Shown one piece after another: positions 15,001-48,000 of a stretch of DNA of 64,000 nt. Source of the stretch: Escherichia coli (GTDB taxonomy: Bacteria > Pseudomonadota > Gammaproteobacteria > Enterobacterales > Enterobacteriaceae); assembly GCF_002854065.1 (NCBI RefSeq), contig NZ_CP024147.1; one strand, 5' to 3'. Every line of letters starts with the position of its first letter. The first letter of the stretch is position 1. A program made the position numbers.

Positions 15001-18000
15001 CGCGTCCACCACAGCGCACTGCTGATGTAGATCGCCGCAACAATAATCATGCTGATAAACACCAGCGCCGAAATCTGATAGTTACGCTGGCTTTGCGCAC
15101 TGGCGGCTTCCAGCACATGGTTGATCTCCAGCTGCCAGGCCTCAAAGTTAACGTCAAACGCATTCTGTGATCCCTGCACCGGCGCAGTGAGGAAATCCGA
15201 AAGTTGATTACTTTCAAGCCAGGTCGCCTGATGTTCGAGATCGTTGTGCCAGCGGGCAAAACTTTTCTCCGTCTCTTTTTGCAATACCCTGACGTGCTCG
15301 TTGCCCGCAGTCATCGCCATAAAACTTTTAAACAGCGTGGTGGATTGCGTCAGACTGGCGCGCGCCGTCGTCATCAACGTTTTAATGTCATCCGCCGGAT
15401 AGCTAAGCGCTGTCAGAGTGCCTGCTTTGTTCAGCGCGGTACTGGCCTGTAACATTACCGCCCGAGTTTGCGCTAATGCCGCACGTTGCTGATTGCTCTG
15501 CTCGACCTGATTCAGTCGTTGCAAATCGTCGCGAAATGCCCAAAAAGACATGCCGTTACTGCCAATCTGCAAGATCCCGCAGAGAATCAAAATTAAAAAC
15601 AGCGTGGTCGAAATTCGAATACGATTAAACATCAACGCTCCCCATCAGGCGGCAATGACCGCGTTAGTAAATACTCGTCAAAATGTTTCCCAGTTTGGAT
15701 ATTGTTCAGCAATTCGCAGTCGTGGCTGTGCCGGTGGTTGCTCACTGGCAGGACGGGATGGTGTTTGCGGTTTATTGGTGAGTGGGCTGGCTGCCAGACG
15801 AAACGCGGAAACCGCTTGCGTTAAACGACTAGCCTGTTCTTCCAGCGCAGCTGCAGCGGCAGCTGATTCCTGCACCAGCGATGCGTTCTGTTGCGTGACG
15901 CGATCCATTTCCGAAACCGCCAATGCGACTTGATCGATGCCACGGCTCTGTTCATCCGATGCCGATGCAATCTCGCCCATAATGTCAGTCACGCGAGTGA
16001 CAGCATTGACGATATTGTTCATTGTTTCCCCGGCGCTTTCGACCAGCACCGAACCGGTATCAACGCGCGAGACGGAGTCTTCAATGAGAGCTTTGATCTC
16101 TTTTGCCGCCTGGGCGCTACGACTGGCAAGATTACGCACTTCGCCCGCCACCACGGCAAAACCACGGCCCTGTTCACCCGCTCGCGCGGCTTCAACCGCG
16201 GCATTCAGCGCGAGGATATTAGTCTGGAAGGCAATACCGTCGATAACGCTGATAATGTCGGCAATTTTCTTCGAACTATCGGCGATCTCATGCATCGTTT
16301 TCACTACGCCATCCACCACTTTGCCGCCGTGCTGGGCGGTGTCGGAGGCACTTTGCGCCAGTTGCGAGGCCTGGCGGGCGTTATCGGCGTTTTGCTTCAC
16401 TGTCGCGGTGAGCTGCTCCATGCTGGCGGCAGTTTCTTCCAGCGCGGATGCCTGCTGTTCAGTACGGGAGGAAAGATCGGTGTTGCCCGCCGCAATTTCA
16501 CGGGTACCGGCATAGATGGCATCTGAACCTTCGCGGACATGAGTGACGGTGTCAGTCAAAGAGCGTTGCATATGTGAAACGCTCTGCGCCAGGTCGCCCA
16601 TTTCACTGCGCCCGTCAATGGTCAGGGTATTCGCCAGGTTACCACCGGCGATTTCGCGAATGTGAGCAATAATTTTTGCCAGCGGTGTAAGCAACATACG
16701 GCGAATGCCGTACCACGCTACCAGCAGAATCAATACCACCACCAGCGCGATAACCGCCAGTTGCCACTGGGCAAATCGGTAATCATCTGCGTTGTCAGTG
16801 ACGATATCGCGATACAGTTTTTCACTGCTGAGGGCGTACTGAGCAAACGCTTCGCCCATTGCATTTTGCATTCCCTGGGTTGGCTGAGCGAAATAAGCTC
16901 CAGTATTGCCATAATCAAGATAATCAATCAGCTCAGTTAACGCTGTGTGATAGTTTTTATATTTTTCATCAATATTACGACTGGTAGCGACCATTTCAGG
17001 TAACGGTGCCATGCTTTTGAATTTTTTATAATGAGTCGCGGCCTGGGCCAATGTTTTCCTGGCGCTATCGAGCAATTCAACTTTGGCATTACTTTGTTGA
17101 TTGGAGGAATCCATCATCATCCGCACCGCTGAACGACTCAGGTTAATGCGCGTTTGCAGCATTAAATCCCAGGTTGACGTCAGCTCGCCCTGCTGTTCCC
17201 GTAATTGATTGGAAACCACAAAGCTCTTCTGGCTATGGTGAAGGGAAGAAAAAAACAGACTGCCGGAAATAAGCTGTAACAGTGCGAATACCCCCAGCAC
17301 CATTACCAACAGCGTGACTACGCGGATACGGTTAATCATAAGGCACCTTCCTGAAAACAAGTTGATCTCGTTATCGGCAAGGAAGGGGGAAACTTTATTG
17401 CTGATGCCACCCGCCGCGAAATTGAAATAAAAAACCCGATGCGCAGATCATCGGGTTCATTTCAATTGAGGAAATCGGGAGAATTACGCCACTTCTGACG
17501 CCGCGCTATCTAACAGCGCCATCTCTTCGCTGTTCAGCAGTTTTTCGATGTTCACCAGAATCAACATCCGGTCGCCCAGTGCGCCCAGTCCAGTGAGATA
17601 TTCTGTTGAAAGCGTCACGGCAAATTCCGGTGCCGGACGAATTTGCTCCGCCGTCAATGAAAGCACATCTGAAACGCCGTCAACCACGATGCCGACCACC
17701 CGCTGTCCGAGATTCAGGACGATAACTACCGTGTTGTCGTTATAGTCCACATCCACCTGGCTGAACTTAATTCGTAAGTCAACAATCGGCACAATAACGC
17801 CGCGCAGATTCGTGACGCCTTTGATAAACGCTGGCGTGTTCGCAATCCGTGTTACCTGATCGTAGCCACGGATCTCCTGCACTTTCAGGATATCAATACC
17901 GTACTCTTCATCACCAAGGGTAAATACCAGAAATTCCTGGCCTGACGGCTCGCTGGCCAGCTTTGTTACATTCGTCATACCGGTCATATTGTTACCTTTT

Positions 18001-45000: not shown

Positions 45001-48000
45001 CCCGCGATTCCCCGACCTCCAGCACCGCGCCAATCTCTTTGAGATTCAGCTCTTCCTGGTAATAGAGGGTTAATACCAGTTTTTCGCGCTCCGGCAACGT
45101 TTCGATGGCTTCCATCACCCGCTGGCGCAGATTACTGTCCAGTAGTTGTTGTAGCGGGTTTTCTCGCTGATGATCATCAGTAACCAGTTCGATGCTATCG
45201 CCGTGCTCTTCGCGCCACTCATCGTAGGAGAAGAGCTGGCTGTTATTGGTGTCGAGCAACATTTGGCGATAATCGGCAATATCGATCCCTAAACGTTCCG
45301 CTACCTCAGTTTCCGTGGCGTTGCGGCCAAGTTCCTGCTCCAGTTGCCCTATTGCCTGTGCCACTTCACGCGCGTTGCGTCGCACGCTGCGCGGCACCCA
45401 GTCACGGCTGCGAAGTTCATCCAGCATAGCGCCACGGATACGCTGCACTGCGTAAGTTGTAAATGCCGTTCCTTGTAGGGCGTCATAGCGTTCGACGGCA
45501 TTAAGTAACCCAATGCCGCCCGCCTGTAGCAGATCGTCAAGTTCCACGCTCGCGGGCAGTCGAACCTGCAGGCGCAATGCTTCGTGACGCACCAGCGGGA
45601 CATAACGCTGCCACAGCGAGTGTTTATCCATTACACCTTCAGCGGTATAGAGTGAATTCACGATAAACAGCCCTGCGTTATATGAGTTATCGGCATGATT
45701 ATCCGTTTCTGCAGGGTTTTTAATCGGACGATTAGTGGGTGAAATGAGGGGTTATTTGGGGGTTACCGGTAAATTCCATGCAGAAAAAACCCCGCCGGTG
45801 GCGGGGAAGTACGTTGCTGACAAATTACGCTTCATGTTGCCGGATGCGGCGTAAACGCCTTATCCGGCCTACAAAAATGTGTAAATTCAATAAATTGCAA
45901 TTCACCTTGTAGGCCTGATAAGCGCAGCGCATCAGGCAATTTGGCGTTGCCATCAGTCTCAGTTAATCAGGTTAGGACGATTAACCCTGCAGCAGAGACA
46001 GAACCTGCTGCGGTACCTGGTTGGCTTTTGCCAGCACGGAGTTACCGGCCTGCTGGATAATCTGCGCTTTCGACATGTTGGACACTTCGGTCGCATAGTC
46101 GGCGTCCTGAATACGGGACTGCGCTTCGGACAGGTTGGTAGTGGTGTTGTTCAGGTTGGTAACCGCGGAATCCAGACGGTTCTGGATAGCACCCAGGGAT
46201 GAACGGAATTTGTCGATGGAGCTGATAGCTTCATCCAGGGCAGCCAGAGGATCTTTGGTTGCAGTGCCTGCACTGGTGGTTTCAGTGGTCAGTTTGCCTG
46301 TAGAGTTAACATAAGCCTGTGCCCCAACAGTAGCTGCAAATTTACCAGTTGCACCTGCGCCATTTGAAGCTACAGTTACTGTACCGGTATCCTTATCGAC
46401 GTTGTAGTTGATAGTGTAAGATGCGGTTGTGGTGAGCTCTTTGTCTGCATCAGTATAGGTGTCATTCGAATTACCAGCACCATTAGTATTCACACCACCG
46501 AAGGACGCCGTTGCAGACTGAATACCTGTATTATACTTAATTGTCGCACCAGTAACTGCTGTGTTAGCCGTTGCAGCACTCTGCACTGTGCTCAGTACAG
46601 TATCAGCGCTTACAGTTTTGGTGTAGGTTACGCCAGAAGTTGCCGCTGCACCAAAGTTATAAGTTGTGCCAGACAGCTGGATAGAACCAGTTGTCGCTAA
46701 GGTACTACCGCTAGCAAACAGATCGGACAATTTCGCTGAAGATGCAATGCCGGCGTTGTTTGTAGATAGGTTACCAGTGGCGTCCAGGTACGCGGCTTTA
46801 CCACCGATGGTCACATCGCCATTAGCATCTACATCAAACTTCACATCACCAGTACTACGAGTATAAACACCTGATGCAGTAGTGCCAGCCGCTGGTTTCA
46901 GAGTATTCGCAAAGTTAACAACATCGCCATCTGCAACTGTTGCTTGAGTGGTGAAGTTCCCTTTAGCCGCATCATAAGTATAGATCGCAGCACTCGAGCC
47001 AGTAGTAGTAACTGTATCTCCGGTTTTCAGGCGAGACAGTGCATCGCTAGCGCTGAGTGCTGTATTGTTTGTGGTCACAGCATAAGGACCTGTTCCCGTT
47101 GCACCAGCAGCGGTCAGATCGCTGACTGTAGCAGCTTTGTTCGCAATAGTGCCTTTGCCATTAACGTTGAAACCATTCAGCCCCAGCGTATCTGAGTCAA
47201 TTTTCTTCAGATCAATCGTGATAGTCTGGCCGTCATTCGCACCAACCTGAATTTTCATCGAACCGTCTTTCGCCAGTACGTTCACACCGTTGAACTGGGT
47301 TTGACCGGATACGCGGTCAATTTCGTCCAGACGGGATTTGATTTCGTCCTGAATGGAGTCCAGATCCGAATCGGAGTTAGTCCCGGTAGAAGCCTGAACC
47401 GTCAGTTCACGGATACGCTGTAAGTTGTTGTTGATTTCGGACAGCGCGCCTTCAGTGGTCTGTGCAACAGAAATACCGTCGTTGGCGTTACGTGCAGCCT
47501 GAGTCAGACCTTTAATGTTAGAGGTAAAACGGTTAGCAATCGCCTGACCCGCTGCGTCATCCTTCGCGCTGTTAATACGCAAGCCAGAAGACAGACGCTC
47601 GATAGAACTCGACAGCGCAGACTGGTTCTTGTTGATATTATTTTGAGTGATCAGCGAGAGGCTGTTGGTATTAATGACTTGTGCCATGATTCGTTATCCT
47701 ATATTGCAAGTCGTTGATTACGTATTGGGTTTCCACCCGTCGGCTCAATCGCCGTCAACCCTGTTATCGTCTGTCGTAAAACAACCTTTAGAATTTTTTT
47801 CACAAACAGCCATTTTTTGTTAGTCGCCGAAATACTCTTTTCTCTGCCCCTTATTCCCGCTATTAAAAAAACAATTAAACGTAAACTTTGCGCAATTCAG
47901 GCCGATAACCCCGGTATTCGTTTTACGTGTCGAAAGATAAAAGGAAATCGCATGGCAAGTATTTCATCGCTGGGAGTCGGGTCAGGTCTGGATTTAAGTT

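Follow-up and report, generated by a model that had tools for sequence, protein, structure and literature searches.

Which transcription units of the flagellar gene cluster are started by the late flagellar sigma factor, sigma-28 (FliA), and how much of that wiring can be read from bare sequence? We examined this question in a 64,000-nucleotide segment of the Escherichia coli chromosome (contig NZ_CP024147.1; hereafter the window), which extends from torZ to fliI and covers flagellar regions II and IIIa. RNA polymerase with sigma-28 recognises a bipartite motif, in which a -35 element resembling TAAAGTTT is separated by 11 nt from an extended -10 element resembling GCCGATAA. A reading of the sequence alone, the original prediction, had named four near-consensus sites of this kind, at tar, within flhC, at fliC and at fliD. 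Direct reading and a consensus search found all four, each with the claimed 11-nt spacer, and we consider it about 97% probable that they are the canonical late flagellar FliA promoters of E. coli:

17371..17397, minus strand: sigma-28 promoter of tar-tap-cheRBYZ, TAAAGTTT-cccccttcctt-GCCGATAA, 16/16 motif positions
21957..21983, minus strand: sigma-28 promoter of motAB-cheAW and MotR, inside flhC, TAAACTTT-cccagaatcct-GCCGATAT, 14/16, 2 mismatches
47764..47790, minus strand: sigma-28 promoter of fliC, TAAAGGTT-gttttacgaca-GACGATAA, 14/16, 2 mismatches
47882..47908, plus strand: sigma-28 promoter of fliDST, TAAACTTT-gcgcaattcag-GCCGATAA, 15/16, 1 mismatch

The tar site is indeed a perfect consensus, with 0 mismatches. 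The coordinates predicted for tar and flhC were exact, while those for fliC (47763-47789) and fliD (47883-47909) were one base off. Every site is oriented toward the flagellar or chemotaxis operon for which it is named, and the end of the -10 octamer lies 31 nt from the start codon of tar, 169 nt from that of motA, 76 nt from that of fliC and 43 nt from that of fliD. Our own analysis shows the sequence matches and their significance, where they lie and which way they point, and that the motif bases are under evolutionary constraint; FliA occupancy and FliA-dependent expression come from published work on K-12 sequence that is identical or nearly so.

A search for the consensus (-35 TAAAGTTT, 11-nt spacer, -10 GCCGATAA; 16 motif positions) returned 6 matches with three or fewer mismatches, where 0.71 were expected, and 6 were reached in 0 of 100 dinucleotide shuffles. 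Spacers of 10 or 12 nt added nothing beyond shifted copies of known sites and weak noise. The weight-matrix scan proposed with the original prediction was also run. The matrix was built from the 52 FliA motifs obtained by chromatin immunoprecipitation sequencing (ChIP-seq; PMC4183435 Table 2) minus the six from this region, leaving 46 sites. The tar site ranked first with 26.3 bits, flhC/motA second with 21.9 bits and fliD third with 20.6 bits; these were followed by a match inside yecU (17.2 bits), fliA (16.4 bits), antisense matches in yedE (16.1 bits) and otsA (16.0 bits) and, in eighth place, fliC (13.4 bits). The counts exceed those of 200 dinucleotide shuffles: 7 matches reached at least 16 bits where 0.26-0.32 were expected, and 3 reached at least 18 bits where 0.04-0.06 were expected.

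The matrix was further applied, on the sense strand only, to the 300 nt before each of 20 gene starts, with the 95th percentile of the null as threshold. Only tar, motA, fliA, fliC, fliD and yecF exceeded it. Class 2 operons and genes internal to operons had no comparable match in these upstream regions, and no sigma-28 site was seen before yecR (7.5 bits), flhB (6.8), flhD (6.6), fliF (6.2) or fliE (0.3). Of the two places suggested for additional promoters, upstream of fliA and upstream of yecR, the first thus yielded a site at 16.4 bits and the second none. The scan agrees with published data, in which flhBAE, fliE and fliFGHIJK have no FliA signal in K-12 MG1655 (PMC4183435) and yecR is a class 2 target of FlhDC. 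A FliA promoter of sdiA, as reported in Salmonella, is absent here; the best upstream score was 4.3 bits.

The same motifs are occupied by FliA in MG1655, where ChIP-seq scores are 57 for tar, 101 for (flhC)motAB-cheAW, 110 for fliC and 43 for fliDST (PMC4183435). In a fliA deletion of that strain, RNA levels drop from 251 to 0 for tar, from 302 to 1 for motA and from 2319 to 11 for fliC, and from 633 to 356 for fliDST (PMC4183435). This FliA regulon (Fitzgerald, Bonocora & Wade 2014) comprises the same loci and genes as found here. The 28-mers of flhC/motA, fliC, fliA and otsA are identical in the window and in MG1655, and the remaining differences are at strain level only: a T in the window for a C in the tar spacer, one base of the fliD -10 element, and the positions of IS1.

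The site inside flhC is the most instructive: across genera, a regulatory signal there holds the codons of the master regulator fixed, as has already been published. The site spans codons 170-179. Its -35 element is (CG)T AAA CTT T(CC), which encodes R170-K-L-S173, and its -10 element is GCC GAT AT(T), which encodes A177-D178-I179. An alignment of 29 FlhC homologues shows no variation at K171 and almost none at L172 and D178; residues 174-176, between the elements, and those past 179 vary freely. DNA of the flhC region was recovered for ten loci by exact-protein look-ups. In nine genera including that of E. coli, TAAACTTT-N11-GCCGATA(T/C) is found at the same codon positions with differing spacers; outside Escherichia it scores 18.4-20.9 bits in the eight genera where motA follows flhC (Salmonella, Cronobacter, Serratia, Dickeya, Edwardsiella, Xenorhabdus, Proteus and Yersinia). 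Across the nine genera, R170, K171, L172, A177 and D178 are each encoded by a single codon (CGT AAA CTT, GCC GAT), while 12 of 13 flhC codons outside the motif whose amino acid is invariant use 2-5 synonymous codons (fixed codons: 5/5 in the motif versus 1/13 outside; Fisher p = 0.0007). In two flhDC loci without a downstream motA, those of Yersinia intermedia and Sodalis sp. C49, the Ala-Asp residues are missing and the best matches score 6.0 and 3.8 bits. The flhC site therefore behaves as a 'duon': the synonymous constraint is limited to the motif and, in these two loci, is gone where motA is missing.

The motA promoter in flhC has been described as a bacterial 'duon' whose -10 element overlaps Ala177-Asp178; FliA binds it in Salmonella, and it is conserved across the gamma-proteobacteria (Fitzgerald et al., bioRxiv 10.1101/188474). 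Nothing in our results differs from that study, to which we add the synonymous-codon count and the two motA-less flhDC controls. Our codon analysis reproduces, on different data, the published constraint of the promoter on FlhC evolution. A journal version of the duon study by Fitzgerald et al. reportedly appeared in Mol Microbiol in 2018.

Two further features lie between this promoter and motA:

21856..21950, minus strand: MotR small RNA in the motA 5' untranslated region (UTR); 98.9% identical to MG1655 annotation b4828, which maps here
21863..21888, minus strand: terminator hairpin after the flhC stop codon, 10-pair stem followed by T8, 26 nt past the stop

By the mapped MG1655 annotation, the 5' end of MotR, at 21950, lies 7 nt past the -10 octamer of the flhC site, and its 3' end, at 21856, is the T-run of the hairpin. 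Transcripts started by FliA would either end at this hairpin, as MotR, or read through into motAB-cheAW. From its position the hairpin could end flhDC transcripts as well, and the ratio of MotR to motA mRNA would depend on read-through at it. The MotR promoter inside flhC has been reported to be the motAB-cheAW promoter as well (Melamed et al. 2023, PMC10578931).

At the other end of motAB-cheAW, the tar promoter starts about 30 nt past a second hairpin:

17432..17458, minus strand: terminator hairpin of cheW (motAB-cheAW operon), 10-pair stem then T-run

With a cheW terminator just ahead of the promoter, the tar operon is transcribed as a unit of its own, immediately after motAB-cheAW. A site of the tar type (21.9-23.0 bits, variable spacers) stands between cheW and the next receptor gene in 6 of 7 other genera. 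The 117-nt cheW-receptor gap of Dickeya solani (L014, 11804-11920) holds no sigma-28-like site, the best score being 1.3 bits, and the receptor gene there may be co-transcribed with cheW or may have its promoter elsewhere. On the strand opposite to tar and cheW, a match to the Rfam family C0465 (17387-17464, plus strand, 111.6 bits) overlaps both the -35 element of tar and the terminator of cheW; C0465 is a candidate small RNA.

The fliC and fliD promoters are divergent, with 91 bp between their -35 elements. Their 264-bp intergenic region exists as a divergent allele in 1,315 of 5,426 E. coli genomes. In three strains carrying it, the region is 66% identical to the window, yet 32 of 32 motif bases of the four elements are unchanged, while the fliC spacer keeps 4 of 11 bases and the fliD spacer 4-5 of 11. 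Conserved elements with drifting spacers are the footprint expected of a bipartite sigma-factor site. In addition, the divergent allele has a 19-bp deletion within 47791-47881, between the two -35 elements, and in that interval, outside the sigma-28 elements, two blocks are preserved, AGAATTTTTTTC and CGAAATACTC; these may be used by a further factor, perhaps for the input of FlhDC to fliD. At position 47901, the first base of the fliD -10 element, the window has the consensus G (GCCGATAA) and K-12 an A (ACCGATAA). The divergent alleles also have GCCGATAA, and the K-12 form is probably a derived, weaker variant.

The 3' end of the fliC transcript holds another small RNA:

45784..45978, minus strand: FliX small RNA in the fliC 3' UTR; MG1655 annotation b4827 maps here at 96.9% identity

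FliX ends at the fliC terminator, 45790-45806, and is processed from the fliC 3' UTR (Melamed et al. 2023, PMC10578931). Both MotR and FliX, which went unmentioned in the original prediction, thus map into the window. Elsewhere, E. coli 23CRST049 (L008, NZ_AP045822.1 4694214-4695097) carries a transposase-adjacent flagellin gene with the same fliC 5' UTR and sigma-28 promoter, and similarity stops just beyond the -35 element. The fliC-type promoter appears to have travelled together with this flagellin gene.

Several explanations other than four functional late promoters have to be weighed against these data. The matches could lack function and resemble the consensus only by chance, in intergenic DNA that is AT-rich. 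The window has 11 copies of the octamer GCCGATAA taken by itself, mostly inside genes, against 1.9 expected from base composition, and matches of 16-17 bits also occur in yecU and yedE, where ChIP signal is lacking; because the octamer itself is over-represented, -10-driven matches at about 16 bits are unreliable. This explanation is nevertheless already refuted by the shuffles, none of which reached the observed consensus count, by the excess of matches at 18 bits and above, by the common orientation toward flagellar or chemotaxis operons, by motif bases conserved amid diverging surroundings, and by published FliA ChIP-seq peaks on the same motifs (PMC4183435), and we give it next to no probability. 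For the flhC site in particular, the match might be conserved for the sake of the FlhC residues KLS...AD, with motA expressed only through read-through from flhDC. K171, L172 and D178 show little or no variation in FlhC, and the -35 element overlaps a basic KRRKLS patch that is possibly important to the protein. Against this, synonymous positions are frozen in the motif codons only, residues 174-176 between the elements vary without restriction, Ala-Asp is missing from FlhC copies that have no motA behind them, and a strong terminator stands between flhC and motA. Published results point the same way, as FlhC with D178A is fully functional (bioRxiv 10.1101/188474) and motA RNA is almost abolished without FliA (PMC4183435). 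Conservation for the protein alone therefore has a very small probability in our judgement.

The balance is different for fliDST, which is not purely class 3, since it also has an FlhDC-dependent promoter (PMC4183435). Here the sigma-28 site may be minor and the FlhDC-dependent sigma-70 promoter dominant, making fliDST behave as a class 2 operon that receives some class 3 input in addition. In MG1655, fliDST RNA falls to 3 without FlhDC and only to 356 without FliA, and the authors concluded that dual targets were transcribed mostly from FlhDC promoters under their conditions (PMC4183435). On the other side, FliA occupies the site, and FliA overexpression without FlhDC raises the RNA of dual targets (PMC4183435); both fliD elements are invariant in the divergent allele; and with the consensus G in place of the K-12 A, the site in the window strain may be stronger. 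We regard the odds for a minor sigma-28 contribution at fliDST as even. This dual control is also one of four points that weigh against the overall assignment of late FliA promoters: fliDST keeps about half its RNA without FliA, so that 'class 3' is only partly right for it. The second is that fliC, the strongest site in vivo, reaches only 13.4-16.8 bits; the matrix score thus does not follow the strength of a promoter. The tar and flhC regions, moreover, are at least 95% identical in nearly all E. coli genomes, which makes comparison within E. coli uninformative for tar and flhC/motA, and cross-genus loci were used instead. Finally, occupancy and FliA dependence in this strain are transferred from K-12 experiments and would be expected to hold here by analogy.

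The assignment of the four sites to FliA suggests the following order of events. FlhDC first switches on fliA. Completion of the hook-basal body frees FliA from the anti-sigma factor FlgM. FliA then starts transcription of tar (tar-tap-cheRBYZ). From its start in the 3' end of flhC, it produces MotR and, probably by read-through of the flhDC terminator, motAB-cheAW. The start at fliC yields flagellin and the 3'-UTR small RNA FliX, and that at fliD contributes to fliDST, which is also transcribed from its FlhDC/sigma-70 promoter. A fifth strong FliA promoter, upstream of fliA, with a perfect -10 and almost no -35 element, provides positive autoregulation:

45687..45713, minus strand: sigma-28 autoregulatory promoter of fliA (fliAZ-tcyJ), TGCAGAAA-cggataatcat-GCCGATAA, 16.4 bits

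The -35 element of this promoter matches only 3 of 8 consensus positions, and because it is so poor the site was missed by consensus reading. In MG1655, the FliA ChIP score is 91 and fliA operon RNA falls from 1257 to 15 in the fliA deletion; FlhDC and FliA both act on fliA, fliL and fliDST, and tar, motA and fliC depend on FliA (PMC4183435). The original prediction, that the sites confirm the class 3 wiring of the window, was accordingly right about the sites themselves, four of the five strong FliA sites present, and incomplete in treating fliDST as class 3 rather than dual class 2/3 and in missing the fliA promoter and a weak site in otsA. A bare-sequence reading can thus get the late flagellar wiring of E. 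coli right, within limits set by the poor -35 of a strong promoter such as fliA and by the low rank of fliC. What it recovered is textbook knowledge, all of it already known: the promoters were defined biochemically decades ago, and their genome-wide map dates from 2014. Promoters of the sigma-D/FliA type in other bacteria share the bipartite motif and a dominant GCCGATA -10 and differ in hosts and gene sets. Those of Bacillus subtilis sigma-D have the form TAAA-N15-GCCGATAT.

The remaining matrix matches are weaker or doubtful:

25189..25215, plus strand: weak intragenic FliA site, antisense in otsA, TGAAATTG-N11-GCCGATAA, 16.0 bits
39556..39582, plus strand: sigma-28-like candidate inside yecU, TAACGTAT-N11-GCCGATAT, 17.2 bits, 107 nt upstream of yecF
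53498..53524, minus strand: sigma-28-like candidate antisense in yedE, GGAAGAAA-N11-GCCGATAA, 16.1 bits

The otsA site has a FliA ChIP score of 2 in MG1655, with expression unchanged (PMC4183435). The yecU match is probably non-functional. We rejected it as a conserved promoter; no ChIP peak is listed for MG1655, though the -35 and -10 elements are identical there. In O157:H7-type alleles its -10 element is destroyed (GTTGACGG) within an otherwise almost invariant stretch, and it is therefore not under selection as a promoter. It is unlikely that the match is a weak, strain-variable FliA promoter below ChIP-seq detection that was lost in O157:H7-type strains; if it were, it would belong with the weak intragenic FliA promoters for which a continuum has been proposed. 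The two yecU allele classes differ by 10-11 changes packed into about 25 nt, at 39560-39585, with hardly any variation among E. coli strains in the 280 nt around them, and this patch looks like a small hypervariable or recombined stretch. The yedE match has only 2 of 8 consensus positions in its -35 element and no listed ChIP peak, and is probably a chance -10 match. An antisense match in fliZ was likewise set aside; its -10 is good, its -35 is poor, at 3 of 8 consensus positions, and it has no ChIP peak. The extra copies of GCCGATAA, for example at 16381 (minus), 14680 (minus), 7429 (plus) and 43305 (plus), include sense-strand copies inside tar and tap; these copies are not among the bipartite consensus matches.

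The genes of the window are, in order, torZ, torY, cutC, yecM, argS, yecT, flhEAB, cheZYBR, tap, tar, cheWA and motBA; then flhCD, uspC, otsAB, araHGF, ftnB, yecR, ftnA, tyrP, tRNA genes, pgsA, uvrCY and yecUF; and finally sdiA, tcyNL, dcyD, tcyJ, fliZA, fliC, fliDST, amyA, yedDEFK, fliE and fliFGHI. Probes of 6 kb and 1 kb from the window both hit E. coli chromosomes, that of strain 100416 at 100% identity. Over its full length the window is 99.95% identical to E. coli strain 100416, except for one extra IS1 in the window. Against MG1655, identity is 97.6-98.8% in the main colinear blocks and lower at fliC and in the yedL-yedN region. The extra IS1 (768 bp, 55545-56312) is 98.7% identical to MG1655 IS1H, is flanked on both sides by the 9-bp target duplication TAATTACCC, and breaks a leucine-rich-repeat protein gene; strain 100416 lacks it. 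The IS1 found upstream of flhD in MG1655 is missing from the window. A scan of the window with Rfam 15, which has no family for MotR or FliX, returned only C0465, three tRNAs and MicL. The MicL small RNA (3087-3394, minus strand; RF02654, 369.6 bits) has the same place as in K-12, partly inside cutC and partly downstream of it.

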